Of a stretch of 64,000 nucleotides of DNA, positions 9,582-54,826 are shown piece by piece (position 1 is the first letter of the stretch; every line of letters starts with the position of its first letter). The notes under the pieces were generated by a model, which was not told the DNA's origin, ran no database searches, and worked only from the letters and a program-made list of their open reading frames with translations. The DNA is from an uncultured bacterium (lineage in GTDB: Bacteria; Fidelibacterota; Marinisomatia; Marinisomatales; Marinisomataceae), in contig CALSYL010000003.1 of the NCBI GenBank assembly GCA_943841495.1, positions 80,915 through 144,914 on the forward strand. The letters run 5' to 3'. The position numbers and the translations under genes are program-made.

Positions 9582-10979
<1,398 letters not shown>

Positions 10980-10983
<4 letters not shown>

Positions 10984-11267
10984 AAAACTTTTTCAAACTA
11001 GAAATCATTACTCCAATCAAAACATTTAGTTTTGATAATGTTTCATATGTGAAATGTCCTGGAGTTGATGGATACTTTGGAATTATGAAAAATCATACCA
11101 ATTCTATAATCAATTTAACGGATGGAACTATATCCATCAAAACTGATAAAGATGAAGTAAGATTTTCATGCTCATACGGCATAGCCGATATTAATTCTGA
11201 TTCTTCTGATGACATTGAAGACAAAGTTCTTCTACTTGTTGAAAATGCAGAAGAATTAGAAAAATAA
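10980..11267 (+). CDS. atpC: F-type ATP synthase F1 subunit epsilon (short form, beta-sandwich only)
   Basis: The GTG start overlaps the atpD TGA (GTGA). The N-terminal [33 protein letters not shown] fits epsilon. At 95 aa it lacks the usual C-terminal helical hairpin. Confidence 0.8.
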
Positions 11268-11284
11268 TTATTAGATTGTTATAG

Positions 11285-13036
11285 ATGACTATTAGAACAC
11301 ATAATTGTGGTGAACTGAATAATAATCATATTGACAAAACTGTAAAACTTTCAGGATGGGTTAATTCGATTCGTACCCATGGTCAGATTATTTTTATTGA
11401 TATTCGTGACAGGTTTGGTAAGACTCAAATTATTCTCAATACAGATAGTTTGGTTGAAACAGGAAAGTCGCTTTCAAATGAAGACGTTATTCATATTACC
11501 GGTAAAGTTATAGCTAGATCTGCAGATTTAATTAATCCAGATTTATCTACAGGACAAGTTGAAGTTATTGTAGAAGAAATAGCTGTTTTAAGCTCAGCAG
11601 AGCCAGTGCCATTAAACATTAATGATAGAGATGCATCATCAGAAGAGCATAGATTAAAATATAGATATTTAGAACTTAGAAATTCTTCTCTTCAAAAGAA
11701 TTTAATTATTAGACATAAGACAGCACAAATCGTAAGAAATTTTTTATCTGATAATAATTTTTTAGAAATTGAAACTCCTGTTTTAATGAAGTCAACACCA
11801 GAAGGTGCAAGAGATTATTTAGTTCCAAGCAGGGTACATAATGGGCAATTTTATGCGTTACCTCAGTCTCCTCAAATGTATAAACAGCTTTTCATGATCT
11901 CAGGCCTAGATAGATATTTTCAAATTGTTAAATGCTTTAGAGATGAAGATTTAAGATCTGACAGACAACCTGAGTTTACTCAAATTGACCTAGAAATGAG
12001 TTTCGTAGATGAAAAAGAGGTAAGAGCGCTAGTAGAAAATTTAATTACAAAAGTCTTTAAAGAAATAATCGATGTCGATATACAAGAATTTCCTGTTTTG
12101 GCATATCAAGATGCTATTGAAAAATATGGAACAGACAAACCAGATTTAAGATTTGAAATGACAATTAACGATTTTAAATCTTTTTCAGATAAATCTGATT
12201 TTAAAGCATTTTCTTCATGTGAAGCTGTAAAAATGGTTTCTGCTAAAAATGCAGATACTTTTTCAAGAAAGGTAATAGATGAGCTTGATAGTTTTGCTCA
12301 ATCTAACGGCGCCAAAGGATTGGCTTGGTTTAAGGTTAATGATAATAATTTAGAGGGAGGAATATCTAAATTTTTTAATGAAGATTTACGTAAAGAAATT
12401 ATTGAAAGCTTTAATCTAGAAAATAATTCTATTTGTTTTATGGTTGGTGATAAGCTTGATAATTCACTTCGTATTTTAGGAAAAGTAAGAAGTAAATTAG
12501 GTGATATGCTTAATCTTAAAAACAATGCATCATTTGCTCCGGTTTGGATAGTGGATTTTCCACTATTTGATTGGAATGAAGATACAGGTCGATTTGATTC
12601 AGTGAATCATCCATTTACCGCTCCTAAAGATTCTGACAAAGATAAGGTAGTTTCTAGTCCTGCAGATATCATTTCTAAAGGTTACGATATAGTAATTAAT
12701 GGGTACGAAGTAGCAGGGGGATCAATAAGAATTCACGATCATGAGCTACAAAAAGAAATTTTTAAAATTATGAATCTATCTGAAAAAGAAATTTCAGAAA
12801 AATTTGGATTTTTTATAGATGCTCTAAAATATGGTACACCACCGCATGGAGGTATTGCTTTTGGTCTAGATAGGCTTGTTATGCTATTGGCTGGAGTAAA
12901 TAATATTAGAGATGTCATTGCATTTCCAAAGACCACATCAGCATCCGCACTTATGGAAGAAGCTCCAAATTACGTTTCAACAGAACAATTAGATGAACTT
13001 GGAATTAAGGTGCTTAGCGATGAAAAAGACGTTTGA
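11285..13036 (+). CDS. aspS: Aspartyl-tRNA synthetase
   Basis: Class II motifs [18 protein letters not shown] and GGSIRIHD...[15 protein letters not shown]-fold N-terminus. Confidence 0.95.
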
Positions 13037-24444: not shown

Positions 24445-27400
24445 CTACCTTACGATAACCATTTTCATGGTTTTATTATAATCACTTTGGCCATCAACTT
24501 TAACTCTTAATTGATAAAAATATACTCCGCTACTGACTTTATCGCCATCATCGTTTTTACCATCCCAGATAGTTGTGTATTGTCCTACAGATTTATCGCC
24601 TTCATCAATTGTTTTAACAAGCTTACCTAGTGTATTGTAGATATGAATTTCTACATCTACCATATTGACCATCATAGATGGTATATCGTATTTAATAGTA
24701 GTTTGATTATTAAATGGATTTGGATAGTTCTGATATAATTTAAAATCATCAGGATTGCTTAGTTGTACCATTCCATTTCCTGCTAATCCATCTTTTGAGA
24801 ACAATTGATAATTTAATTCAATATCATTGGTTATAGCGGCTCCTTCAACAGTAATAATTAGTTGATTATCATTAGATGAAAGGTTACCAAATTCAAATTC
24901 ATAATATTGATTTTCTTGATCAGTATTTTCAAGCACCATGTAACCTTCTTTATTAGAAGCTTTAAAAGTATAAATATTGTTTAAGTTGCTTAGCTCAAAT
25001 CTTCCAGCTGTAGTACCTTCTGGTAATTCAATGATAATTTGATTACCAACAACTTCAGCATCAAATTCAATTGGAATGATTTCTTGTGATTCTTGAGCAA
25101 TTCTTCCTTGTGCTTTAGTCCATAGCCAATTTCTTGAGAATACGCTAATATCATTAATGTCTGCTGTTCCATCTAAGGAAGGCATAGGGTAAGGGCTTGC
25201 TCCACTTGCAGGACCAATATCAACATTTGGCCAAGCACTTACAAATGCATTTAAGTCAGTTACATCGACATCCCAATCACTATCTGAATCACCAAGCAAT
25301 GAGGTATAAGTGTTAAATTCTTTGATTACAAAAGATGATTGATTATCTGCTCCATCTAATGCAACAACTTTCAAATAATAAGTTGTGAAATCATCTAGGG
25401 TTAAATCAGTAAGCTGTAGATTGGTCAAGCCAACATTTTTATATGCAACAATATCTGCAGAGTTGTCATCACCACTAGATCCAATTCCCATAAAGTATGC
25501 TGATATACCTGTATTATCAGACCATCCATCTACTGTTATAGACACTTCTGACGTACTTCGAAGATACGACGAATCGTATATATCGTTTAATGTAACTGTA
25601 CCAGCTGTTGGTCCAGAAGAGTCAAGAAGGAAGCTCACTTCAGACCCAACAGTTTCATTGCCATCATTATCAACTGCTCCTACTTTATAATACCATGTAT
25701 CTCCTTGACTTAATCCTTCATGGATGTAGGAATCAACACCAAATGTTTGTCTGAAAACAAATGTAGTATCTGCCCATGGAGAAGATGAAGGAGAGGGTTC
25801 AAGATGTTCAGAATCAATATTTCCTAATGTCCCTTGACCAAGTAACGTGCTACCATCTGCTGTAAAACTTTCTGTTTGGCTTCCATATACATTATAAGAA
25901 GCAAAATCATCTTCTAGATTTCTATTCCAATATAAACCAATCTTATCTAATGATGGAGTCCATACCGAATTCGTTGAATCATATTCCAGTTCTGCTCCAA
26001 CAGTAACTCCTTGAGGAGCTAAAGGGGATCCAGCAGAATCAAGTTGTCCTGCAGTTAAAGTAAAATTATCAAAAAATGCATAGCCTTGTCCTGCTGTATA
26101 AACATGAATCGCCACTCTAACTTTTGTTCCTGCGTATTGAGTTAAGTCATAAGATCTTTCAGTCCACGCTCCTACAGCTTCTGTAACTGTATCTAATGTT
26201 ACTGTGAAACTCTCTGGAAGAGCAGAACCAGTAGGGGAAAGCATTACTGAATAGTTTTCTTCTTCACCATTCATATTAGTATAAAATTTAATTAAATTAT
26301 CTGTACCAGGTCTAAGCCACAGTTCAGGACTTACTAACCAATCATCTGCAGTGGCACTACTATTCATTCCAAGTCCTGCCATCCAGTGACTACCGTCTGC
26401 AGCACCAAATCCAGCTGTATAATACCACCAACCCCATGAGTCTGAATCATTATTTTCATCAAAGTATGAAAAGGCATGAACATCTCTTCTATTATCTGCC
26501 CATCCATAAGGATTTGTTTCAAACCCTTCTTCCCATAAGGTATCTTGCTGAGCAGTTACCCATATTAGATTTGATTTTGCAACATTATCAGTACTTGAAC
26601 CATCTGAAACTTGTAGTGAGACTGAATAACGTCCTGAGCTTTGGAAGGTATGAGATGGAGACTGCTCTGTACTAGTATTACCATCACCAAAATTCCACAA
26701 CCAACTACTAACATTACCAGTAGATCTATCGCTAAAATTAACAGTTAGTGGAAAAACTCCAGAAAGTTTGTCAGGAGTAAATGCAGCATTTAGTGGTGCA
26801 GTGGATGTAAATCCAGTAGAATAAAATATCCCTCTTCCATGTGTTCCCGCAGCCAGTGCATTATCTGAAGATCTTCTAACGAGCATATCAGTTCTTACGT
26901 TTGCTAATCCATCATTTGATGGATACCAAGTAGGAGATGCAGCTGTGACATCGTCCGATACCCATGTACCTAATTCGGTAGCTAGTATAACTTGGTTATA
27001 ATTTTCAGGATTGTATAATCCCCATCTTACTGGCATATCTGAAAGATCACCTTCAATATCTGTCCAGCCGTTAGAACCGCCTCCACCGACTGTTTCCCAA
27101 ACAGAAACTGCCCCATAGTTTGATATAGTTGCTAAAATTTGATTATCAGAAGCTCCTATATCAATAGATGAAATATATCCCTGCATGCTTGATCCACCTA
27201 TTTCTTCAACAGTATATGATGAAGTGCTTGCATTAGAAATTTTAAAAATTCTACCAGCTGACGTTCCAACAAACAGTACATCACTACTATGAGGAGAGAT
27301 TTTAAAAGCTGAAGCTGTTGAACCTAGGGAAACTTGCATAACTGATTTGTCAGCAAGCGTTGCATAGTTTCTTAATTTTAAAATTGAAGTAGCATCTAAT

Positions 27401-29202
27401 GCAGAGTAAAAAGTTTGAGTATTACCATCTATTGTAGAAGGGTTAATGAAGAAGCCTGTATCTCCACCGTCACTTGTTTCATGATTAGCATAATAACTCC
27501 AAGTCGATCCACCGTTGGTGCTTCTATAAATATTGTTATATGTTGTTGCTGTAAACTGATAATTTGGGTCAACTTGATCAATATGGGTATATGCTCCATC
27601 ACCTCCAACTACAGCATTACCATCTCCAATGCCGGTTCCACCAATTGTCCATGTACCGTTATCTTGCGTACCTCCTATAACATATTCACTGCCAGCATCA
27701 GGATGAAGTGCTACTGAATAGAATTGACTTACATTGTAACCAGTATTTCTATCTGCTAGTGTTGCACCAGCATCGTTTGTATAATAAACACCTCCATCAT
27801 TTGAAAAGATAATTTCATTACTTGTTACAGTTTTAAGATTCTGTTGATCAACATGCATATAAGGATATGTTGAACCTCCGGAATTAGAAACTTGAATCCA
27901 AGAATCACCTCCATCAGTTGATTTAAAAACATCTAACTCTCCTGCATATAAAATGTTTGGATCATTTGGATCTACGCCAAGACTTAAATCATAGCCGGCT
28001 TGTCCGTTAGCGTCTCCTAGAACATTTCCATTGTCATCAACTGGAAATGGATCAGATGTCCCTGCTGTGTATGTCGTCCAGTTTGCACCGCCATCAACAG
28101 TCTTAACAATCCATTGAATTTTTCTAGTATCAGAACTAGCTATCATTGCATAAACATAGTTTGGGTCAGATGGAGCTACTGCGATTATAGTTCTATTCGG
28201 GCTCCCTAAAAATGAGATAGATGCTTTTGTCCAATTTAAGCCATCGTCTGAGCTGAATATATCACCGCCGCCATTACCATAAACATTTGTTCGAGATGCA
28301 GCCCAAATTTTGTTGTCGCTTCCCATATCTAAGTCCATTATTTCATATGCATCACCATCTGTAGAAGCTGTATCCATTACTTGCGACCAAGTTGTGCCAC
28401 CATCTGTTGATCTCCAAAGTCCAGTATATTCTGATCCATGCCATTTACCTTCATAGCGATGACCGCCTACACCAATATATACAACACTTGATCCACCTTC
28501 ATTTCTTACAAGTATATCAGTAACGTAATTAAAATTTTCAGTTGAAGATAAATGTGACCAAGTTGCACCACCGTCAGTTGTTTTCCATAGCCCTAATCCG
28601 CGACTAGCAGTTGAAAAAATACCCATTCTTTCACCAGTACCAACATACATTGTATTGGTGTCATTTGGATCATAGTTAATACTACAAACAGCTAAATTAC
28701 CCCATGTTCCATCTACGCTATTCCAATCTGGATTTGAACTCGTAATATCATTGGTATACCATAGTCCGCCAGATACTCCAGCAGCCCATAGCTTTTTATT
28801 TGAAGAATCATTTGGATCTAATAATAATGCCCTAGTTCGTCCGCCTATAGTATTGGGACCTCTTTCAATCCAATTAACTTCCGTCATTTTTTTAGAATAC
28901 ATTGAGCTAGTTCTTTTTTCTTCAGCTTCATCAATAGCATTTAGAATTCTTTCGGTTGGGATAGTCCCGGTATTCAAGTCATACATCATTAAATAATCAT
29001 GAGCACCTTTAAGATCTGGTCTCAAAGCTTTAGGTAGTTTTTTACTATCCTTATAAGACAATATTTGTTTACTAGCTAAGAACTCATCAATGAACGCTTC
29101 ACGTTCAATTCTTTGATTTTCAAGATAAAAATTTTGTACTGGTTGAAATAGTAAAAATATTGCAATAATAAGTCCAATTGATATGTATGTAATTTTTTTC
29201 AT
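24445..29202 (-). CDS. 1585-aa secreted multidomain protein. Domains in order: signal/anchor, Asp-box (BNR/sortilin-like) beta-propeller region, PKD, choice-of-anchor-J/cleaved-adhesin-like domain, FN3/Ig-like modules, dockerin-like module, Ig-like module, T9SS C-terminal sorting domain
   Basis: About 7 Asp-boxes (TTDGGATWSH, STDGGTTWSQ, SSDDGLNWTK, TVDGGANWTT, STDGGDSWIQ, SNDGGVYY, STNGGSTWSY) between aa ~110-800. PKD signature WNFGDGNTSTEQSPSHTF. LWEEGFE...DDWLVSPELWL...YSVMLSPTG is choice-of-anchor-J-like. The start lies 3 nt downstream of the upstream lipoprotein's stop. Confidence 0.85.
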   Translation of the reverse strand: MKKITYISIGLIIAIFLLFQPVQNFYLENQRIEREAFIDEFLASKQILSYKDSKKLPKALRPDLKGAHDYLMMYDLNTGTIPTERILNAIDEAEEKRTSSMYSKKMTEVNWIERGPNTIGGRTRALLLDPNDSSNKKLWAAGVSGGLWYTNDITSSNPDWNSVDGTWGNLAVCSINYDPNDTNTMYVGTGERMGIFSTASRGLGLWKTTDGGATWSHLSSTENFNYVTDILVRNEGGSSVVYIGVGGHRYEGKWHGSEYTGLWRSTDGGTTWSQVMDTASTDGDAYEIMDLDMGSDNKIWAASRTNVYGNGGGDIFSSDDGLNWTKASISFLGSPNRTIIAVAPSDPNYVYAMIASSDTRKIQWIVKTVDGGANWTTYTAGTSDPFPVDDNGNVLGDANGQAGYDLSLGVDPNDPNILYAGELDVFKSTDGGDSWIQVSNSGGSTYPYMHVDQQNLKTVTSNEIIFSNDGGVYYTNDAGATLADRNTGYNVSQFYSVALHPDAGSEYVIGGTQDNGTWTIGGTGIGDGNAVVGGDGAYTHIDQVDPNYQFTATTYNNIYRSTNGGSTWSYYANHETSDGGDTGFFINPSTIDGNTQTFYSALDATSILKLRNYATLADKSVMQVSLGSTASAFKISPHSSDVLFVGTSAGRIFKISNASTSSYTVEEIGGSSMQGYISSIDIGASDNQILATISNYGAVSVWETVGGGGSNGWTDIEGDLSDMPVRWGLYNPENYNQVILATELGTWVSDDVTAASPTWYPSNDGLANVRTDMLVRRSSDNALAAGTHGRGIFYSTGFTSTAPLNAAFTPDKLSGVFPLTVNFSDRSTGNVSSWLWNFGDGNTSTEQSPSHTFQSSGRYSVSLQVSDGSSTDNVAKSNLIWVTAQQDTLWEEGFETNPYGWADNRRDVHAFSYFDENNDSDSWGWWYYTAGFGAADGSHWMAGLGMNSSATADDWLVSPELWLRPGTDNLIKFYTNMNGEEENYSVMLSPTGSALPESFTVTLDTVTEAVGAWTERSYDLTQYAGTKVRVAIHVYTAGQGYAFFDNFTLTAGQLDSAGSPLAPQGVTVGAELEYDSTNSVWTPSLDKIGLYWNRNLEDDFASYNVYGSQTESFTADGSTLLGQGTLGNIDSEHLEPSPSSSPWADTTFVFRQTFGVDSYIHEGLSQGDTWYYKVGAVDNDGNETVGSEVSFLLDSSGPTAGTVTLNDIYDSSYLRSTSEVSITVDGWSDNTGISAYFMGIGSSGDDNSADIVAYKNVGLTNLQLTDLTLDDFTTYYLKVVALDGADNQSSFVIKEFNTYTSLLGDSDSDWDVDVTDLNAFVSAWPNVDIGPASGASPYPMPSLDGTADINDISVFSRNWLWTKAQGRIAQESQEIIPIEFDAEVVGNQIIIELPEGTTAGRFELSNLNNIYTFKASNKEGYMVLENTDQENQYYEFEFGNLSSNDNQLIITVEGAAITNDIELNYQLFSKDGLAGNGMVQLSNPDDFKLYQNYPNPFNNQTTIKYDIPSMMVNMVDVEIHIYNTLGKLVKTIDEGDKSVGQYTTIWDGKNDDGDKVSSGVYFYQLRVKVDGQSDYNKTMKMVIVR
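24448..24744 (-). other. T9SS type-A C-terminal sorting domain (Por_Secre_tail / FlgD-Ig-like), aa 1487-1585 of the giant protein
   Basis: FKLYQNYPNPFNNQTTIKYDIP...IHIYNTLGKLVKTI...WDGKNDDGDKVSSGVYFYQLRV is the hallmark pattern of this sorting domain. Confidence 0.8.
25120..25299 (-). other. Dockerin-like module (duplicated Ca-binding F-hand), aa 1302-1361 of the giant protein
   Basis: Repeat 1, DSDSDWDVDVTDLNAFVSAW, has Asp at loop positions 1, 3, 5, 9 and 12. Repeat 2, (SL)DGTADINDISVFSRNW, keeps positions 5, 9 and 12. The start-to-start spacing of ~34 aa matches dockerins. Confidence 0.6.
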
Positions 29203-29205
29203 TTT

Positions 29206-30246
29206 TTACTCTACTATAATATATCCATTTACTGATTGATTTAAAGTTATATCGCTTCCATCTACATCTAATATTTGTTGAGAAGATGTATTTGAATCAA
29301 AATTAATTGAAATACTTTCTCCGCTAGCTCCATTGACAGTAAAGTTAATAGTAGCTAAAGTGCCATCTCCATCTGCGCTAGGTTTATCTGATGAAAGAGA
29401 TGATGTATAAATTGATAACTGTGTTGTAGAACCATCTGTTGAAGTTTCAGTCACAAGCAAAGGATCAGTATTACCTTGTAAAAAGTCTCCATCGTCAATA
29501 TTGCCTAAAGTAAGTTTTGTATTATCCCAAATTAAAATTGCTTGAGCTGCCGCAACGCCAGTCGCGCCTAAAATATTCCAATTAATAGTTACTGAATTTC
29601 CAGATGTTGCAGAAGTATATTTACTATCAATAACAAATGCAGGAGTTTGAACATCGCTAACATTGATATAGCTTGAAAGAACATTAGTATCTGTTCCACC
29701 GTCACCAACAACTGAAAGTGTTACATCATAAGCTCCAGCAGTGGTGTAAGTATGCACAGGATTTTCATCAGTGCTTGTATTGCCATCACCAAAGTCCCAA
29801 AGAGAAGTATTGTACCTCACTGAAGAATTAGAAAATTCAACTCTCAAATCTTTTGTTCCAGAGGTAGGCTCACCAGTAAATAGGGCAGCTGGAGGAGTTG
29901 CAGTTACAGTTACATAATTACTTTTTGTTTCAACATCTACACCATTCGGCCCCGTTGCAGTGAGCGACACAGTATAAGTACCAGCTTCATTATAAGTGTA
30001 TTGTGCTAATATTCCTGAAGCATCTAAAGTACCATCTCCATTAAAATCCCAATCATGTGAAGTAGTATTAGTAGAAGTAGATGTAAAATTAACTATTAAA
30101 GGGGTACTGCCACTTAATGGTGTTGCAGAAAAATTAGCTACCGGAGGATCGTTGTTTGGCCCTGGACCTGTATCATCTCCACCTCCACCGCCACCGCAGT
30201 TAATTAGGATGAGTGCAATAAAGATTGGAAGTAATTTTCTGAACAT
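29206..30246 (-). CDS. Lipoprotein with poly-Gly linker, two PKD domains and a C-terminal cohesin-like domain
   Basis: Lipobox LILINC (Cys17) followed by GGGGGGDD. PKD signatures WDFNGDGTLD...YTVSLTA and WDFGDGNTSTDENPVHTY...YDVTLSV. The C-terminal 144 aa is cohesin-like. Confidence 0.8.
   Translation of the reverse strand: MFRKLLPIFIALILINCGGGGGGDDTGPGPNNDPPVANFSATPLSGSTPLIVNFTSTSTNTTSHDWDFNGDGTLDASGILAQYTYNEAGTYTVSLTATGPNGVDVETKSNYVTVTATPPAALFTGEPTSGTKDLRVEFSNSSVRYNTSLWDFGDGNTSTDENPVHTYTTAGAYDVTLSVVGDGGTDTNVLSSYINVSDVQTPAFVIDSKYTSATSGNSVTINWNILGATGVAAAQAILIWDNTKLTLGNIDDGDFLQGNTDPLLVTETSTDGSTTQLSIYTSSLSSDKPSADGDGTLATINFTVNGASGESISINFDSNTSSQQILDVDGSDITLNQSVNGYIIVE
29209..29640 (-). other. 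Cohesin-like domain, aa 203-346 of the lipoprotein
   Basis: SGNSVTINWNILGATGVAAAQAILIWDNTKLTLGNIDDGDFLQG...GDGTLATINFTVNGASGESISINF...VNGYIIVE parallels the cohesin pattern (G.tV.V.v...g..g....l.yD...L....v..Gd......GdGtlatl.F.v......). Confidence 0.6.
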
Positions 30247-30307: not shown

Positions 30308-31390
30308 TTATAAAAGAGTTAAAGAGATGTTCCTATCCATTAAATATTGTAATAGAAAATCAAAACATTTTTTATTTGAGCCAACAATTTCTGGAGGATG
30401 AACTCCTTTTTTATCCCATAAATTATTAGCTAGCATGTTTACAGTTGCTGTAGCAGTATAACCGGTTGTTCGCGCCATGGAAGAAGATGTAGTATCCTCA
30501 TCAAATTCATCATAAAGATGATATTTAATATTTTTTGCACTACTATATATATTAATATCTAAAACAGTAAATTCTTTTTCGTTCTTGCCTAATTCCCAAT
30601 CTTTAAAAAGATTAGTTGCTGTTTGCTTGATATTTTCTTCATTAAACAGCCCTTTGTCATATAGTGATTGCATCAATTCAGCATGTCCTGGATAACGTAA
30701 GGTTTTTTCCTTCATATTAGGGATATGAGTCATTGTGGTTAGCAATGATCTTAGTCCATCCGTATTAAATGCTTCAAGTTTTCCAACATCTAAAATATCA
30801 AGAATTTCAATTTCAGACAAAGCAGGTTTAATAACTATTTTTGAATCTATCATCATTCTAGCTGGTCTAGTATATTCTTCAATAACATCTATTGGAGAAA
30901 AAGGAGCTTTATAATAATAAGGGGGAATGGGATTCTTAGGAAGTCCGCCTACAACATATTCAAAAGCTTCTACTTCCAGCTGAGAATTCCAATACCCTAA
31001 AACAAAGTTAGGTATTCCAGGTGCAACACCTGCATCAACTACAGCACAGACATCATTTGTTACAGCGAGATCATGGAGCATTAAAACATTTTCAGGAGAA
31101 AAAGAGATATCAACAACATCTTTTCCACTTTCAATTATTGTCTTAAGTGCATCAAAACCTAAAAATCCTGGAACAGCAAGTAGAACAATATCAGCATCTT
31201 TAATCCATTTACTTAAACTTTCTTTATTTGTTACATCTAACTGATGAGTATGAATGTGGTTTAGTTCAGATTTAATTTTCTGTAGTAAGTTTATATTGGA
31301 GTCTGCTAAGTGAAGGTCAAAATTTCTAGATAAATCATGTGCCATTGTTTTTCCAACAAGACCGGCACCAATTTGAAAGATTTTTTTCAT
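30308..31390 (-). CDS. Saccharopine dehydrogenase-family NAD(P) oxidoreductase
   Basis: Rossmann motif MKKIFQIGAGLVGK, with central and C-terminal regions typical of the Sacchrp_dh family. The first 23 codons of the listed ORF (to 31459) are the antisense-free read-through of tRNA-Asp and are excluded. Confidence 0.7.
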   Translation of the reverse strand: MKKIFQIGAGLVGKTMAHDLSRNFDLHLADSNINLLQKIKSELNHIHTHQLDVTNKESLSKWIKDADIVLLAVPGFLGFDALKTIIESGKDVVDISFSPENVLMLHDLAVTNDVCAVVDAGVAPGIPNFVLGYWNSQLEVEAFEYVVGGLPKNPIPPYYYKAPFSPIDVIEEYTRPARMMIDSKIVIKPALSEIEILDILDVGKLEAFNTDGLRSLLTTMTHIPNMKEKTLRYPGHAELMQSLYDKGLFNEENIKQTATNLFKDWELGKNEKEFTVLDINIYSSAKNIKYHLYDEFDEDTTSSSMARTTGYTATATVNMLANNLWDKKGVHPPEIVGSNKKCFDFLLQYLMDRNISLTLL

Positions 31391-31400
31391 TGAAAATTTG

Positions 31401-31474
<74 letters not shown>

Positions 31475-35433: not shown

Positions 35434-36315
35434 ATGAAATCTATCTTAATTACCAATCTAGTTGCAGATATGAAGCTTCAAGGATTTTATTTATGCATTG
35501 AAAAGAAAGTTCAAAAAAAAAGAGATGGTTCGCCTTACTTAAACTTGCTACTTCAAGATAAGTCAGGATTAATTAGAGCTAGAATTTGGGACAAAGTTCA
35601 AACATTTTCAAAAAAGTTTGAAAGTGGCGATCCAGTAGCGGTGAAAGGATCTACCTACCAGTTTGGTGAAAGTTTGATGATTAGAGTTGAGAATATTTCA
35701 AAAGCGAATGAAGAAAAATATAAAAAATTTGGATTTAAATCTTCGGACTTAATTCCTGTTTCCAAAAAGAATCCTAATGAACTATGGAAAATATTAGCAA
35801 AAGAGGTTAATGGGATATCTAAAAGTCATTTTAAAAAATTAACAAAAAATATTTTATCAGAACATAAAGATAAGTTCAAAATATATCCTGCAAGCATATC
35901 TTATCATTACAATTATCAGAGTGGATTAATTGAACAAACTGTATCATTACTAAAAATTGCTAAACAAATTGGTGTACATTATGATATTGATATTGACTTG
36001 CTTGCTACCGGTGCTTGTTTACATCAAATTGGAAAACTATATTCGATAAATCTAGGATCGTCTTTTGCAAAGTCAAATCATAAGGCGCTTGTTGGAAACG
36101 CTATTCTTTCAAGGGATATAGTAAACAAATATATTTCTGAAATTAAAAATTTTCCGGAAGATGATAAGCTGAAACTAGAACATTTAATTTTATCATATCA
36201 AGGTAGGAAAGAATGGCAAAGTCCTGTTGAGCCTCAAATTATTGAAGCGGTTTTATTGCATTCAATAAATTTAATGGATTCAAGAGTTAATTTTATGAAG
36301 CAGGATGAATTTTAA
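35434..36315 (+). CDS. OB-fold plus HD-domain protein (YhaM-like 3'-5' exoribonuclease family)
   Basis: N-terminal OB-fold region (FYLCIEKKVQKKRDGSPYLNLLLQDKSG) and an HD-like region (ACLHQIGK, LLHSINLMDS). Confidence 0.6.
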   Translation: MKSILITNLVADMKLQGFYLCIEKKVQKKRDGSPYLNLLLQDKSGLIRARIWDKVQTFSKKFESGDPVAVKGSTYQFGESLMIRVENISKANEEKYKKFGFKSSDLIPVSKKNPNELWKILAKEVNGISKSHFKKLTKNILSEHKDKFKIYPASISYHYNYQSGLIEQTVSLLKIAKQIGVHYDIDIDLLATGACLHQIGKLYSINLGSSFAKSNHKALVGNAILSRDIVNKYISEIKNFPEDDKLKLEHLILSYQGRKEWQSPVEPQIIEAVLLHSINLMDSRVNFMKQDEF

Positions 36316-37930
36316 ATCTAAGCTTCTTTTTCTAATTTGTTCATTAAGCGTATCAAATGGACAAGAGGTTATTCCGTTTGATATTTCAAGTCAATTTGCA
36401 GTGCCAATAAGTAACAACCAATTAATTTGGAATACTGATCGGTCCTTTAAAAAACTTTTGATTGATAGATCAACCAAAAATTTCAGACAAAAATTTACAA
36501 ATTTAACTTTTGAAGAATTGCCCAACGATTCAACTTACGTGAAAAGTAAATTTATATACGAGTTTGGCGATTATGGCTTTGATAAGCTTAGTGTTGGATT
36601 GAAAAAGCATTCAAAAAATAATAATTTTGAATTTACTGGCATGAAAAAAAGTTTTTTTGGTCAATACTCTGAATTTGCTAATTCAGAAACACCGCCATTG
36701 AGCTTGTTCTATCAGTTTGACTACTCTAAGAGCTTTGAAAGAAGTAAAATTTATTCTTCATTAGGGTATTTCAGAGAAAATTCAAATTTCCTTTTTGATT
36801 CATCGTTAGATAGCAATTACTCTGAACCAAGTAATGAATTTTCTGATTTTATTTCTTTAACCTTGGGAAATATTTTTAGTAAAAATAATTTTAATTTTGA
36901 TTTACAATTAAATCATATAAGTAAATACAAATCGTCACTAATAAATGAGTATAATATTAATAGTAAATATGATTTAGATAGAAATAGGTTTGTAGCTGAA
37001 ATACACAAAGATAATTTTTTATTTTTAAATATTATTCTTAATAATAGTTTTTATAATGATAAAAAATCATTCAAAAGATTTGCATTAAATTCTTTAACTA
37101 TAACTCGTCAAAACTATAATTTTTCTGTTCCAACAGGAAAAAATTACCCCGCAGGAGAATTGATATATGGTGTTGATTTATTTGAAGATCATATCAAGCC
37201 TAATATTTATTATAAAAATATTTTTGGAAATCTCGATGTAGTATTTAAGACTAGAAATCAACATTCAATAGTCCTCATGAACACTTTGGATTATATTGAA
37301 TCAGAAGAAGTTTTAATTGCCAATGATCAATTTAGTGGTAATGAAGTTGAGGAGTGGAAAAATTTAACGCTCACTTATTACTTTAATACCAAAACAGATT
37401 TTTCAGCTTCTTTGAAATATGTAAAAGCTAATAATTTTATTATACCGGAGGCAGATAGATATAAATTTATAAACGATGACATGTTATCACTTCAGACGAA
37501 GATTGAAATTCCATTCAAATATGGTATAATAAATTTTAATCATTCTTATAATTTTGATGATAGTTTAATTAGTTCAAATAGAGCTCACATTCTTAATTTA
37601 GATTATCTTTACAGCTTATCTTTGATTGAAAATAATCTGGGAATTGATGGAAAACTTAGTTTTCAGTATATGTCAAAAAATAATTCAGACTATAGTTTTA
37701 ATTATTTTAAGAATATGCCTGAAAGGAATAACAATATTAACAGTGATGAATATATTAATATTGCTCTGAATACAGAGATTGCAATATCCGATGTACTACT
37801 AACTATCCGACTCCAAAATGCTTTAGGAAAATTTTACTCAAATGAAGACTACTCATTAGAAAATCATGAATTTTTTAATCCAATGAGCAGTCTATTAACA
37901 TTTGGAATCATCTGGGAATTTGATGACTAA
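36305..37930 (+). CDS. Uncharacterised secreted protein, probable outer-membrane beta-barrel (541 aa)
   Basis: Signal peptide MNFKSKLLFLICSLSVSNGQ and alternating aromatic/polar strand-like pattern throughout. The aromatic-rich C-terminus is FGIIWEF(DD). I recognise no family motif. Confidence 0.5.
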   Translation: MNFKSKLLFLICSLSVSNGQEVIPFDISSQFAVPISNNQLIWNTDRSFKKLLIDRSTKNFRQKFTNLTFEELPNDSTYVKSKFIYEFGDYGFDKLSVGLKKHSKNNNFEFTGMKKSFFGQYSEFANSETPPLSLFYQFDYSKSFERSKIYSSLGYFRENSNFLFDSSLDSNYSEPSNEFSDFISLTLGNIFSKNNFNFDLQLNHISKYKSSLINEYNINSKYDLDRNRFVAEIHKDNFLFLNIILNNSFYNDKKSFKRFALNSLTITRQNYNFSVPTGKNYPAGELIYGVDLFEDHIKPNIYYKNIFGNLDVVFKTRNQHSIVLMNTLDYIESEEVLIANDQFSGNEVEEWKNLTLTYYFNTKTDFSASLKYVKANNFIIPEADRYKFINDDMLSLQTKIEIPFKYGIINFNHSYNFDDSLISSNRAHILNLDYLYSLSLIENNLGIDGKLSFQYMSKNNSDYSFNYFKNMPERNNNINSDEYINIALNTEIAISDVLLTIRLQNALGKFYSNEDYSLENHEFFNPMSSLLTFGIIWEFDD

Positions 37931-39993
37931 AGTTGATATTCAACTGTAAGATTCATGCTTCTTCCAGGCTCTGGATATCCTATAGTTGAAATATATTCTT
38001 CATCAAGAAGATTATCTACAGTCAAATTAGCTCTAATCATATTTTGACTACTTCCTAACGTTATGTTTTTTGAAAATGCTAAACTAACTAATCCAAAAGA
38101 TGCATCGTTTACTGGCTCTGCCCAATCAGATCCATATTGTAAAATTCTATCTCCTGTTAGTTTATATACTAAAGAATAGTTTGTAGAGCTATTTTGTTTG
38201 AAAGTAAATAATAAGCTAGCTGAACTATCAGGAACATACAGTAATTTTTCGTCCATGTCTTTATCTAAAGAGTCATAAAGATTGTATGTTAATTGCATTT
38301 GAACTCTATCAAACTCTTTCAAGTATTGCAAATTGTATGATGTTCTTTCAGCGGAAGATACATTAATTGGAACATATTTAAAGGATTCATTAGGCTGCCA
38401 TAATATTAAATTTTTATAATCTTTGAATGAGGCAGTTAATTTTATTTTTCCTAATAAAGATTGATTGGAAACAGAAAGAGCCATATACTCACTTTCTTCT
38501 GGTTTTAATTCTGGATTTCCTCCGCTATATAATCCATCTGGCCAAAATAAATCGTTCATTGTTGGAAATTGAAATGAGGATCCAATATCTAAATTAAAAT
38601 CAAAAGAACTAGTTGTCTTGTTAAATTGATTCAGCGCTTCAAACCCTAGATTAAACGTTGATTTCTCATTTTCTTCTCTAGAATCAAATCGTAATGATGG
38701 TGATATCTTGTAATCATTTTCAAGATTGACATAATTACCAGTTAATGATAATGAAGTTGTTTTAAGCTCGCGTTTTTCTAAATCACTGCTATCCACTCTT
38801 TCGGTTTTTTGATTAAACAAAACTTCATAGTTAAGTGATTCAGTTATGATTTGTTTACCTGTTAATCCAAAAGAAGTGTAATCTAAATCATGTTCACTAA
38901 AAACAGGAAAAGATGCATTAGAGTCATCATAAACCTGATCATTGCTTGAACGATTCATTTGTATTTTTAAAAAACCTTTATCAAAGAACTTATTGAAAGA
39001 TAGTGCAAATAATTCAAAATCATCAGTTCTGGTTGCATTAGGGGATGGAAAGCTAGTGCTTCCTGATGCTCCTCGTATATTTTCTGTTTTTAAAGTGAAT
39101 ATATTAACGACAAAATCATCGCTAATAACAAATTGTCTATCCATTGCCATAAAAAATTGGTCTAAATAATTATTAACTCTTTTAACTTGTTTGCCGGTTG
39201 CATCTTCGTATTTAAAATCTCCATCGTAAGATGTTTTTCCAAAAACTATATTTCTTTTTGATGTTTTTCTATCAATAGAATAATTGGCCCCAAATTGTGA
39301 AAATCCATAATCTCCAGTCCCATAGAAAACGTTATTATTTTCTATGCTATTATTAATATTAAGCGATCCATCAATTGATCCTGATCCATACTTAGTTCCT
39401 GAATTAAGTCTGTAGTTTATAGATTTTAGAGCAAATGATGGCAAAGTAGAAAGATCTGCTTGTCCATTCATAGCATCTGTTAAGTCTACTCCATTGTAAA
39501 GTACTTTAGTATGCCTAGCAAAGCCTCCATCAAATGAAGCTGATGTCACGCCGGCATAACCTCCGTATGTTCTCATTTCTAACGAAGGTATTTGGTTTAA
39601 AGATCCTCCTCTAGAATAAGTTCCTAAATTATTATAAGAAGTTTTATTTCGTAAATATTCATTTTTATTTCTTCCATAAACATCCACTGTTTCAAGTGAA
39701 ATATTATCAAAAAGCATTGTAACATATTTAGTTAATCTTTCATTCGGTTTGATAATTAGGTTTTCGAATCCAATTCTCTTAAATAGTACATCAGATTCAT
39801 TGTTAACGTTAATTATAAATCCACCATTCTCATCAGACATAGTCCAATTTGTATTTTCTAAATTTGCATTAATTTCTTCAATTATTACATGAGAGATTGG
39901 TTCTCCTGAAATATCTTTTATTACACCAGAAAAAGATTGTCCAAGAAGATTGGTGAGAAGTATAGCAAACAGTATATATGATTTTTGTATCAT
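37927..39993 (-). CDS. btuB: TonB-dependent receptor with N-terminal CarboxypepD_reg domain; cobalamin/corrinoid receptor inferred from the upstream riboswitch
   Basis: CarboxypepD_reg-like N-terminal segment GVIKDISGEPISHVII, a plug region and a long beta-barrel ending LTVEYQL. A B12 riboswitch occupies its 5' leader. Confidence 0.8.
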   Translation of the reverse strand: MIQKSYILFAILLTNLLGQSFSGVIKDISGEPISHVIIEEINANLENTNWTMSDENGGFIINVNNESDVLFKRIGFENLIIKPNERLTKYVTMLFDNISLETVDVYGRNKNEYLRNKTSYNNLGTYSRGGSLNQIPSLEMRTYGGYAGVTSASFDGGFARHTKVLYNGVDLTDAMNGQADLSTLPSFALKSINYRLNSGTKYGSGSIDGSLNINNSIENNNVFYGTGDYGFSQFGANYSIDRKTSKRNIVFGKTSYDGDFKYEDATGKQVKRVNNYLDQFFMAMDRQFVISDDFVVNIFTLKTENIRGASGSTSFPSPNATRTDDFELFALSFNKFFDKGFLKIQMNRSSNDQVYDDSNASFPVFSEHDLDYTSFGLTGKQIITESLNYEVLFNQKTERVDSSDLEKRELKTTSLSLTGNYVNLENDYKISPSLRFDSREENEKSTFNLGFEALNQFNKTTSSFDFNLDIGSSFQFPTMNDLFWPDGLYSGGNPELKPEESEYMALSVSNQSLLGKIKLTASFKDYKNLILWQPNESFKYVPINVSSAERTSYNLQYLKEFDRVQMQLTYNLYDSLDKDMDEKLLYVPDSSASLLFTFKQNSSTNYSLVYKLTGDRILQYGSDWAEPVNDASFGLVSLAFSKNITLGSSQNMIRANLTVDNLLDEEYISTIGYPEPGRSMNLTVEYQL

Positions 39994-40019
39994 ACTTTCC
40001 TCCGAAGTTATTGTTTATA

Positions 40020-40170
40020 TTTTTAACAAATAAGGTCTCCTGGCTTATACCTAAAACAGTTTAATTCCTTCTCCTACATTGTAGAATGGATTTTATTAAA
40101 CCTCAGTAATTACAGTAGCGGGGACTGCTAAAGATTTGAACTTTATTCCCTACAATTGTTAAGAAACTTT
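40020..40170 (-). promoter_or_regulatory. Cobalamin (AdoCbl-type) riboswitch in the 5' leader of the TonB-dependent receptor
   Basis: Minus-strand read: ...GTAGGGAATAAAGTTCAAATCTTTAGCAGTCCCCGCTACTGTAA...CCATTCTACAATGTAGGAGAAGG...TATAAGCCAGGAGACCTTA. It contains the conserved GGGAA, GC.G.CCCGC.ACTGTA core and the B12 box AGCCAGGAGACC (plus-strand 40034..40045). The boundaries are approximate. Confidence 0.85.
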
Positions 40171-40217
40171 AAAGTTTATTTTATCAAATGTAAACGATTA
40201 TTTATTTAAATTAATAT

Positions 40218-40745
40218 ATGTCAAAATATCAATCTAATCGTTTAAACAGCTTAACATTAATTTTAAATGCTAGTTATTTACCACTAGGTGTATGTAGTTC
40301 AAAAAGAGCTATTTGCCTATATTTTCTTGATAAGGTTGATATTTTAATGAATTATGATGAACGTATTCATTCACCTTCTTTACAAATGAAGATTCCAAGT
40401 GTAATAAAGCTCAAAAAATATGTATCCTTTAATAGCTTAGATATAGTTTTAAATAGAAAAAATTTACTAATGAGAGATAATTCATGTTGCCAATATTGCG
40501 GTTCAAAATCAAGCTTAACCATTGATCACATTGTCCCTAAGCAAAAAGGTGGGCAAGATACATGGGAAAATTTAATTATTGCATGTTCGCCATGTAATTC
40601 AAAAAAAGGGAATAGAACTCCATATGAAGCTGAAATGAAATTGATGAAAATCCCAAAAAAACCAAATAGATTTATGTATTATAATCAATATATTAGTCAA
40701 AGAAATGAAGGATGGAAAGACTACCTCTTTCAAAATAAAAATTAA
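40218..40745 (+). CDS. HNH endonuclease-domain protein (175 aa)
   Basis: CCQYCGSKSSLTIDHIVPKQKGGQDTWENLIIACSPCNSKKGN is a complete CxxC...H-N-H...CxxC zinc-finger HNH motif. Confidence 0.85.
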   Translation: MSKYQSNRLNSLTLILNASYLPLGVCSSKRAICLYFLDKVDILMNYDERIHSPSLQMKIPSVIKLKKYVSFNSLDIVLNRKNLLMRDNSCCQYCGSKSSLTIDHIVPKQKGGQDTWENLIIACSPCNSKKGNRTPYEAEMKLMKIPKKPNRFMYYNQYISQRNEGWKDYLFQNKN

Positions 40746-53961: not shown

Positions 53962-54826
53962 ATGCAAGTCAAGAGTTTTGCTATATGGGCTAATGCAGAA
54001 AAAGAAAAAGTTCCTGCGTTAGTCCAAAACGCTTTGCAATGGGCTAGTGAAAATAACTTAAATGTTCATTTAGCCGATCGCCTGAAAAGTATTAGCATCA
54101 ATGGTGATGTGTCATACTTTTCAACCCAAAACCCACCAGATGTAGATTTCCTGCTTTGTTTAGGTGGAGATGGTACACTTATATCTGGTGTCAGAATTTT
54201 TTCCAATCCTTCAGTTCCTGTTCTTGGAGTTCATATAGGAGGTTTAGGATTTTTAGCTCAAATTACCCCAAAAGAGTTAATCGATAAGTTAGAGGCAGTC
54301 AAAAAATAATGAATTTAAAATTCAAGATAGATTAGTTCTATCTGCCAAAATTTCAAGCAATGACGATTCTTTTTATGCAGTTAACGATTTTGTTGTTCAA
54401 AATGAAACGTCATTTAGGGTAACATCTTTATCTTTATATATCGACAATCAGCATGTAAGTGATTATAAGTCTGATGGAATTATAATAAGTACTCCAACTG
54501 GATCCACTGCATACTCTTTATCTTCTGGCGGGCCAATTGTCCAACCTGATGTTTTTTCAATTATAGTAACTCCTATTTCACCGCATTCTCTTACTTCCAG
54601 ACCTCTTGTCTTGCCACCTGATGTCGAAGTTGAATTTAGATTTAATGCTGAATCAGAAAAAAACCTTAACTTGATTATTGATGGGCAGAATATCATAAAA
54701 TTTACTAATCAATCAACTGTTAAATTGTCTCAAGCTAAACATCATTATAAATTTATTACTTTTAAAGATTATAATTATTATGACACTCTAAAGAATAAAA
54801 TGATTTGGGGAAAAAGAGGTTCTTAA
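53962..54826 (+). CDS. nadK: NAD kinase, interrupted by a +1 frame break in an A6 run at 54301-54306 as assembled
   Basis: The first ORF (53962..54309) contains GGDGTLISG. The +1 frame from 54290 continues [15 protein letters not shown]...[23 protein letters not shown]...ISPHSL...IDGQ, the NAD kinase C-terminal half. The listed 54611..54826 ORF is merely its tail. Confidence 0.88.

Follow-up and report, generated by a model that had tools for sequence, protein, structure and literature searches.

A two-gene operon conserved in Marinimicrobia encodes a cohesin lipoprotein and a GH74-fold, probably T9SS-type cargo protein with a dockerin-like module

The stretch of DNA analysed here (the window, 64 kb of contig CALSYL010000003.1 from an uncultured bacterium of the Marinisomataceae) holds on its reverse strand, at 24445..29202, an intact open reading frame (ORF) of 1585 amino acids (aa), the coordinates taking in the stop codon. 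We found that the encoded giant protein, hereafter the cargo, belongs to a conserved operon of two genes in Marinimicrobia (SAR406/Fidelibacterota), the other of which, directly upstream, encodes a lipoprotein with a cohesin domain. A preliminary description of the cargo had presented its type IX secretion system (T9SS) C-terminal sorting domain (CTD) and its dockerin-like module as two redundant surface-retention signals. Because the upstream gene, which that description did not mention, encodes a cohesin lipoprotein that co-occurs with the module in every locus examined, we suggest instead that the two signals are probably not redundant, and rather sequential and complementary, the CTD serving for export and the module for subsequent tethering. 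We consider it likely that the cargo is a surface-displayed T9SS-type protein with a GH74-fold head. The full chain, CTD-dependent export and then tethering of the dockerin-like module to the cohesin lipoprotein, is somewhat favoured, and the specific cohesin-dockerin contact, a prediction, has an even chance of being real.

Genomic organisation and conservation of the operon

The stop codon of the partner gene lies 3 nucleotides before the ATG of the cargo gene (junction GAG TAA AAA ATG). The lipobox of its product was recognised by pattern match alone (ALILIN-C17, then GGGGGGDD), and the pattern L-[IL]-[SNG]-C-GGGGGG is kept in every carrier with an available N-terminus (about 30 loci), including the 984-aa carrier of a second operon type described below. 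The two PKD domains that follow likely form a stalk. The cohesin domain matches the Pfam family PF00963 with 35.0 bits (E 1.9e-8; gathering score 24.1), and the match covers profile positions 8-138 of 139. Orthologues of the lipoprotein carry precomputed Cohesin matches, and a PDB search with the cohesin profile returned 22 weak matches, of which 17 of 22 were cellulosomal cohesins, PDB 2B59 among them.

Homologue searches with the profile of the dockerin-like module and with the cohesin domain gave only short fragments of the same family, and the distribution was therefore taken from a search for representative relatives and from a genome scan. Scanning 185,579 species genomes (one per species) with the cohesin profile gave 28 loci, essentially all of them in single-amplified genomes (SAGs) and metagenome-assembled genomes (MAGs) of Marinimicrobia / Neomarinimicrobiota / Fidelibacterota; a 969,550-bp chromosome and a 1.04-Mb contig are among the sequences with the locus. 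Wherever a scanned locus includes downstream sequence, a propeller gene comes next, abutting or overlapping the cohesin gene, and the downstream genes that are not cut by a contig end all carry the dockerin-like module and the CTD (16/16, 15 of them intact and one, at locus L036, split over several ORFs). Four metagenome loci (L001-L003 and L007) likewise combine the cohesin lipoprotein with a cargo that has both. In metagenome contigs (53-60% identity) the gene order is invariably saccharopine dehydrogenase, PKD-PKD-cohesin lipoprotein, cargo and SIS-CBS, and the operon block is flanked by YceG, UvrD, SecA and NusB. The cargo itself is 99% identical to one metagenome protein, has numerous full-length homologues at 55-78% identity, and those of the homologues that bear an organism name come from Candidatus Marinimicrobia / Neomarinimicrobiota. 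This phylum-wide conservation in core synteny fits the important role that had been proposed for the gene.

Some records of the operon are irregular. At L036 (BOWX01000001.1, MAG CM1_5m.P33) the cohesin gene is spread over several ORFs, as is the cargo gene, which indicates either assembly frameshifts or a decaying operon. Loci L011, L012, L032 and L037 lie on short contigs in MAGs labelled Legionellales, Flavobacteriaceae, Nitrosopumilus and Flavobacteriales, and these contigs are likely binning contaminants.

A divergent second pair has another architecture. The cargo of this pair, P0240 (1207 aa), has a head of 44% identity. The part equivalent to aa 798-1199, namely the PKD domain, the choice-of-anchor J domain and the next module, is missing from P0240, in which the Ig-like module, the dockerin-like module (E 2e-33), the X module and the CTD are retained; the region equivalent to the X module and CTD resembles the C-terminus of the T9SS-dependent M6-like family NF052323 (E 4e-8). 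The carrier of this type is a cadherin/Big_9-PKD lipoprotein of at least 632 aa (984 aa at locus L035), and its C-terminal domain is again a cohesin, homologous to the first (39% identity, E 8e-17). Both operon types are present in SAG SCGC AAA160-I06, as L026 (357-aa carrier, 1593-aa cargo) and L035 (984-aa carrier, P0240-like cargo). The cargo ORF of L035 breaks off after 294 aa though the contig continues, pointing to a frameshift or a pseudogene.

Outside these operons the picture is different: the dockerin-like module is absent from 147 of 149 representative relatives of the head, and no cohesin neighbour was present at the three inspected loci of module-less relatives (L004, L008 and L009). 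The divergence of the cohesin was compared with that of the cargo domains, and it followed the dockerin-like module (r 0.82; partial r 0.68 when controlling for the head) more closely than the CTD (r 0.68; partial 0.50) or the head (r 0.65), which is suggestive of a link between cohesin and module. Genomic evidence thus links the two domains.

Two loci of head relatives lacking the dockerin-like module showed a neighbour of another kind. At L008:5572-6000 and L009:1276-1716 a small lipoprotein of about 145 aa precedes the head; the two are homologues of one another (W-x-x-WAGG-x-x-GV-x-G), neither has a Pfam match, and neither is a cohesin. The cargo family that carries this head may have a lipoprotein partner as a general feature. 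The context of the distant head-only homologue at L004 was uninformative and contained no polysaccharide utilisation locus.

Domain architecture of the cargo protein

The cargo gene is, as first described, the largest of the window, with SecA (1007 aa) in second place. Its product starts with MKKITYISIGLIIAIFLLF, read by eye as a putative Sec signal, and the CTD ends at the last residue, aa 1585. The overall reading as a secreted, multidomain T9SS-type cargo is supported, and the PKD and choice-of-anchor J domains assigned earlier were confirmed by profile matches (Table 1). The FN3/Ig modules of the same description found no such backing: with matches accepted up to E<=10, Pfam gave none for aa 1051-1304 and only sub-threshold ones (E 0.024-0.16) for aa 1362-1497. 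The second of the two beta-rich modules (aa ~1196-1297) always stands immediately N-terminal to the dockerin-like module. Within the family, the most conserved parts are the CTD (80% mean identity) and the dockerin-like module (77%), against 61% for the head.

The dockerin-like module had been placed about 125 aa upstream of the CTD, and the position is right, the acidic stretch of aa 1303-1362 ending 124 aa ahead of it; the dockerin label fared less well, resting as it does on a pattern. This pattern consists of an invariant loop, D-x-D-x-D-x-D-x-D-x-x-D-L, plus a helix. Segment 1 of the module has a canonical Ca loop of 12 residues and then a helix (D1304-x-D-x-D-x-D-x-D-x-x-D1315-L), and hhalign aligned it to true dockerins at 37% probability, the same value as for the internal repeat. 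Over its full length the module aligned to true dockerins with 58 columns in register at 16% probability. An AlphaFold2 (AF2) model of the isolated module shows helices after both loops, at low confidence (pLDDT 61.8, pTM 0.44).

At the C-terminus, the assignment to T9SS type A stands by a narrow margin, as the domain scores 23.7 against TIGR04183 (cutoff 23) and 16.4 against the type B model TIGR04131 (cutoff 35). Pfam Por_Secre_tail (PF18962) gives 23.3 in the full protein, below its threshold of 27, and 29.5, above it, on the isolated domain; FlgD_ig gives 41-47 bits and CHU_C 28-36 bits. The layout YPNPF…GVYFYQL…K-x-x-x-x-[RK], starting with YQNYPNPFN, occupies the extreme C-terminus. Among the 149 head relatives, 106 have [YF]PNP, typical of type A CTDs, within their last 110 residues. 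In Bacteroidota, and also in the type-2 paralogue, the same head comes with a CTD that clearly matches TIGR04183 (42-50 bits), and such Bacteroidota homologues are named 'T9SS type A sorting domain-containing protein'. Up to 24 proteins with a 'Por secretion C-terminal sorting domain' have been reported per SAR406 bin (PMC5596340), and there are reports or suspicions of T9SS for several non-Bacteroidota phyla within the Fibrobacteres-Chlorobi-Bacteroidetes (FCB) group, Marinimicrobia not being listed (PMC11285876).

Proposed mechanism and alternative explanations

We propose that both proteins would be exported by Sec. The lipoprotein would be lipidated and, as we assume, exposed at the surface of the outer membrane, with a stalk made up of its Gly-rich tether and the two PKD domains. 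The CTD would take the cargo across the outer membrane by a T9SS-type pathway and then be removed, which would leave the dockerin-like module near the new C-terminus. There the module, together with the preceding Ig-like module, would bind the cohesin of the lipoprotein non-covalently and probably in a Ca-dependent way. The PKD, choice-of-anchor J and beta-sandwich modules would serve as the stalk of the cargo, so that some 1,300 residues would separate the displayed head from the anchor. In this position the head could bind, and possibly process, a glycan or other polymer.

Several points weigh against this scheme. The outward orientation of the lipoprotein is an assumption. In the module, the second Ca loop is degenerate; segment 2 keeps positions 5, 6(G), 9 and 12 and has lost positions 1 and 3. 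The hhalign comparisons with true dockerins reached a probability of just 15-37%, none of 24 family members matched Pfam Dockerin_1 (PF00404), and the isolated segment had no match to it at E<=10. A PDB sequence search with the module profile returned zero matches, while a control profile built from true dockerins found 30 PDB sequences; Foldseek with the AF2 model, whose confidence is too low to decide on the fold, listed no dockerin among its matches (best PDB E 3.3). Because these family-level tests were weak or failed, we describe the module as dockerin-like, as a working term, and do not file it as a member of the dockerin family. The parallel divergence of cohesin and module is a mirror-tree result, which is confounded by shared phylogeny and is no independent statistical test. 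The CTD is, by sequence, nearer to FlgD Ig domains (PDB matches at 1e-6 to 2e-7) than to solved T9SS CTDs (PorU at 0.04-0.11, aligned over the full CTD length). Finally, scans with Pfam and NCBIfam of nearly all window ORFs of at least 100 aa not identified by synteny recognised housekeeping genes only and no T9SS component, and T9SS machinery is undocumented for Marinimicrobia in the literature searched, as is anchoring to anionic lipopolysaccharide (A-LPS). The host is a member of the Marinimicrobia, an FCB-superphylum lineage distinct from Bacteroidota, and the Bacteroidota framing adopted in the preliminary description is not supported.

In a first alternative, the two proteins are co-regulated, independent adhesins. 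The Asp-rich module would then be a mere Ca-binding linker, similar to EF-hand or thrombospondin type 3 repeats, which stiffens the stalk; the cohesin would have some other ligand, or none on the cargo, and the adjacency of the genes would reflect shared regulation or a shared surface function with no physical pair. The missing Pfam, PDB and fold support for a dockerin is in line with this view, as are the acidic Ca loops found in many unrelated modules and the unrelated lipoproteins of about 145 aa that precede the head in other lineages, by which a lipoprotein and propeller arrangement may be independent of cohesin. Against it stand the strict co-occurrence of cohesin and module at about 30 loci and in two divergent architectures, the joint absence of both from relatives, a module more conserved than the domains around it, and a cohesin whose divergence tracks the module best. 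We hold independent adhesins to be unlikely.

In a second alternative, that of the preliminary description, the two signals would be parallel retention routes: the CTD would lead to covalent anchoring of the A-LPS type, as in Porphyromonas, and the module would bind cohesins on other cells, particles or scaffolds. PMC9143113 describes such a covalent A-LPS anchoring of type A CTD cargo in P. gingivalis, and the strong conservation of both CTD and module is in line with this alternative. A dedicated cohesin partner 3 nucleotides upstream in the same operon in every genome argues against it; no further cohesin or dockerin-like copy was detectable in the window, and the literature searched documents no machinery for A-LPS attachment beyond Bacteroidota. 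Parallel routes appear quite improbable.

Also improbable, to much the same degree, is that the CTD is a structural FlgD-type Ig domain and no T9SS signal, the cargo surfacing otherwise, staying periplasmic or being held there by the lipoprotein: FlgD_ig outscores Por_Secre_tail, the PDB matches favour FlgD and the window shows no T9SS genes, but the extreme C-terminal position, the YPNPF and G-x-Y-F-Y motifs, the passing scores for TIGR04183 and, on the isolated domain, for Por_Secre_tail, the clear CTDs borne by the same head elsewhere and the many such tails in SAR406 genomes all speak for a sorting domain.

The beta-propeller head

The head contains the seven or so Asp-boxes announced for it: seven motifs (S/T-x-D/N-G/D-G-x-x-W/Y) start at aa 208, 265, 317, 368, 428, 467 and 561, against 0.07-0.8 expected from composition shuffles, none of 2000 of which reached seven. 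An AF2 model of aa 30-805, computed from 39 sequences including distant relatives (pLDDT 87, pTM 0.84), has about 55 strands after a helical N-terminal region. Searched against the PDB with Foldseek, its best 24 matches are all GH74 xyloglucanases (E 7e-26 to 5e-19; TM 0.59-0.70; sequence identity 14-18%), and a sequence-profile search of the PDB also placed GH74 first (E 1e-26). Model and matches show the tandem fold of two seven-bladed propellers that defines GH74. Of the two likenesses suggested earlier, sortilin/VPS10 or GH74, the latter therefore stood. The ten-bladed sortilin/Vps10 fold was rejected as a model, with 3e-9 in the profile search against 1e-26 for GH74 and no place in the top 50 Foldseek matches. 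A PorZ-like primary model was likewise rejected (TM 0.50, rank 32).

Residues of the canonical GH74 catalytic Asp pair are, for example, D60 in PoGH74, and D35 and D465 in OXG-RCBH. The first Asp was identified from the wild-type and D60A chains of PoGH74, whose sole difference is YARTDIGG against YARTAIGG. By hhalign (69% probability, 66 columns) this residue aligns to Val143 of WAAGVSGG in the cargo, and Val occupies the position in 119 of 119 family sequences and 38 of 39 wider relatives. For the second, D465 of OXG-RCBH in the motif LGD[VI][SG]GF, hhalign found no alignable counterpart in the head (probability <1%); the invariant D514 and D535 are mere candidates for a catalytic Asp. The canonical pair is hence not present, and because the first catalytic Asp is an invariant Val, the head has a GH74-like fold without being a canonical GH74 enzyme. 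This agrees with the earlier statement that no catalytic motif is recognisable.

In comparison with the GH74 xyloglucanases (PDB 2CN3, 6MGJ, 6P2N and 1SQJ), the head shares two tandem seven-bladed Asp-box beta-propellers, the N-terminal blade being in register. It differs by its low identity, by the loss of the first catalytic Asp, by an extra helical N-terminal region, and by an invariant polar set of its own (E191, R337, H450, D452, Q513-D514-N515, D535). Across phyla, the invariant polar residues are D129, E191, R337, H450, D452, D469, Q513-D514-N515, D535, D592, R770 and R790, and the motif RPDL...D..M..DP.LG..P.ERL of the helical N-terminal region is kept across the wider head family. The most economical reading, from these conserved positions, would be a cleft for polymer binding, possibly with non-canonical catalysis.

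The near-invariant H-x-D-x-H of the head family reads H-V-D-Q-Q in the present cargo (27841-27855, aa 450-454) and likewise in 13 close relatives (14/119 family sequences), a clade-specific change to HxDxQ at a putative functional site. The orthologues L023 (OZ243041.1) and P0030, of about 1716 aa, have an insertion of about 100 aa in the first propeller (match split into 117-312 and 417-926).

T9SS-type cargo heads of this kind form a very large and uncurated family. At E<1e-30 it comprises 3,799 clusters (50% identity), and the alignments of the top 150 relatives, at 40-49% identity, span all 700 residues. These relatives invariably have the head at the N-terminus, and their tails measure 0-2,900 aa. 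Neither Pfam nor NCBIfam has a model for the head, and only weak, sub-threshold matches were obtained (NCBIfam F510_1955; Pfam BNR_2, DUF4185 and Sema).

Comparison with known systems

In Clostridium thermocellum, a dyad of an X module and a type II dockerin binds a cell-anchored cohesin. The operon shares with this system a cohesin on the cell-anchored protein and, on the displayed protein, a module of Ca-loop/helix repeats placed after a conserved Ig-like module; with one carrier, one cohesin and one cargo, it likewise resembles an anchoring device and not a means of collecting enzymes. The differences lie in the diderm host, in an anchor that is a lipoprotein and not an SLH (S-layer homology) or sortase protein, in the T9SS-type CTD added to the cargo, and in a module that fails Pfam Dockerin_1 and has a degenerate second loop, the pairing here being predicted from the genes.

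The closest published idea concerns another non-Bacteroidota FCB phylum, the Cloacimonadota, where a cellulosome-like complex was proposed for 'Ca. Stygibacter' (Williams et al. 2021, PMC8542988), with a 3,755-aa tandem-cohesin scaffoldin bearing a CTD and many enzymes with canonical C-terminal dockerins. It too combines cohesin, dockerin and a T9SS-type CTD for surface display. The topology found here is reversed and minimal, since a single cargo has both the module and the CTD, and a single cohesin is carried by a lipoprotein of the same operon.

With the type A cargo of Bacteroidota, such as gingipain RgpB and the enzymes of F. johnsoniae, the protein shares a Sec leader, an N-terminal functional domain, Ig-like spacers and a CTD of about 90 aa (TIGR04183/PF18962). 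It comes from another phylum, its CTD is at the threshold and nearer to FlgD_ig, and we propose that a protein partner retains it non-covalently, in place of its being linked to A-LPS or released. The PorZ protein of Porphyromonas gingivalis (PDB 5M11) also has two beta-propellers followed by a CTD, as in the cargo; its structural likeness (Foldseek rank 32, E 1e-15, TM 0.50) is far weaker than that of GH74, no sequence relationship was detected, and PorZ is part of the T9SS attachment complex, whereas the cargo is long and stalked.

The literature searched contained no description of the operon or of a cohesin-mediated retention of CTD cargo, and nothing specific on T9SS, dockerins, cohesins or the cargo protein in Marinimicrobia. 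The pieces are familiar; what is new is their combination, the lineage and the uncurated head family. Retention of T9SS cargo in Bacteroidota is described in PMC9143113 as occurring by A-LPS linkage (type A) or through PorP-like partners (type B). The proposed tethering, if true, would add a third route for T9SS-type cargo, and would widen the range of cohesin-dockerin anchoring to include a diderm, with an outer-membrane lipoprotein as the anchor. Marinimicrobia/SAR406 are globally abundant, largely uncultured and have streamlined genomes of about 1 Mb; despite this streamlining, the marine radiation as a whole has kept the 5.8-kb operon, in a neighbourhood of housekeeping genes. A conserved representative with mapped invariant residues also makes the FCB head family experimentally approachable. 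A wider reading, which we offer tentatively and regard as rather doubtful, is that a minimal, dedicated cohesin/dockerin-like pair retains T9SS-type cargo and replaces anchoring of the A-LPS or PorP type, that the GH74-fold head founds an enzyme or binding family (at least 3,799 clusters) with a non-GH74 site formed by E191/H450/D452/D514/D535, and that the system could be central to polymer capture in a lineage which ranks among the most abundant of the dark ocean.

Coordinates of the features

The positions of both genes and of their domains within the window are collected in Table 1.

Table 1. Features of the cargo gene and of its partner lipoprotein gene (window positions; residues refer to the respective protein)
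Feature	Position	Strand	Residues	Basis or remark
Whole cargo ORF	24445..29202	-	1585 aa	
Putative Sec-type signal / hydrophobic leader, MKKITYISIGLIIAIFLLFQPVQN	29131..29202	-	1-24	Inferred by eye from sequence
Conserved alpha-helical N-terminal region ahead of the propellers	28891..29115	-	30-104	Helices in AF2 model
GH74-like tandem beta-propeller head with 7 Asp-boxes	26803..28890	-	105-800	AF2 and Foldseek
PKD domain	26578..26754	-	817-875	Pfam PKD_4 62.7 bits, PKD 39.5 bits
Choice-of-anchor J domain	26062..26535	-	890-1047	NCBIfam NF038128 55.6 bits (cutoff 30)
Two beta-rich modules	25312..26025	-	1060-1297	No Pfam match at E<=10
Dockerin-like module, LLGDSDSDWDVDVTDLNAFVSAW ... SLDGTADINDISVFSRNWLW	25108..25311	-	1298-1365	Ca-loop/helix pattern
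Beta module (X module) between dockerin-like module and CTD	24739..25095	-	1370-1488	
C-terminal sorting domain, T9SS type-A-like / FlgD_ig-like	24448..24738	-	1489-1585	Profile matches
Partner lipoprotein gene (PKD-PKD-cohesin)	29206..30246	-	346 aa	Directly upstream of cargo gene
Lipoprotein signal peptide and lipobox (MFRKLLPIFIALILIN, then C), followed by poly-Gly/acidic tether	30196..30246	-		Read from sequence
Two PKD domains	29659..30141	-	~36-196	Pfam PKD_4 88.5 bits, two stretches
Cohesin domain	29227..29616	-	211-340	Pfam PF00963

Other features of the window

The window has a GC content of about 30% and otherwise holds housekeeping genes, including those for ATP synthase, SecA, tRNA synthetases and NQR. 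Between 24001 and 30000 the GC content is 0.33-0.38, against about 0.27-0.33 in the rest, and the cargo protein is rich in G, D, T and S; the higher value of the operon is probably an effect of amino-acid composition. Recent horizontal transfer was rejected as the source of the local excess (0.37-0.38 against ~0.30), as the operon is syntenic across the phylum.

Two essential genes appear to be frameshifted. The atpD gene (ATP synthase beta, 9594-11285) appears split near 10780, its ORF stopping at 395 aa and the C-terminal ~70 aa (ending IEKGKK) continuing in another frame ahead of atpC; the probable cause is an indel introduced in assembly or sequencing, and the gene is probably no pseudogene. 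The NAD kinase gene (53962-54805) is split near 54309, with the N-terminal 115 aa in one frame and the remainder in another. Together, the two cases suggest indel errors in the assembly.

Next to the operon, the saccharopine dehydrogenase ORF as called (30308-31474, reverse strand) starts at a TTG inside a tRNA gene (31401-31474), and its true start is probably the downstream MKKIFQIGAG…. Further along, a cobalamin riboswitch (74 bits; 40013-40173, reverse strand) lies directly upstream of a TonB-dependent receptor gene (37927-39993, reverse strand), the two likely forming a B12 uptake unit. Convergent with the receptor gene, 36305-37930 on the forward strand encodes a secreted protein of 541 aa with no Pfam or NCBIfam match, which is kept in synteny, at 478-536 aa, on other contigs of Marinimicrobia and may be a protein of the outer membrane. 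Between the riboswitch/TonB unit and a tryptophanyl/tyrosyl-type tRNA synthetase lies a stand-alone gene for an HNH endonuclease (40218-40745, forward strand), within an otherwise streamlined housekeeping region.

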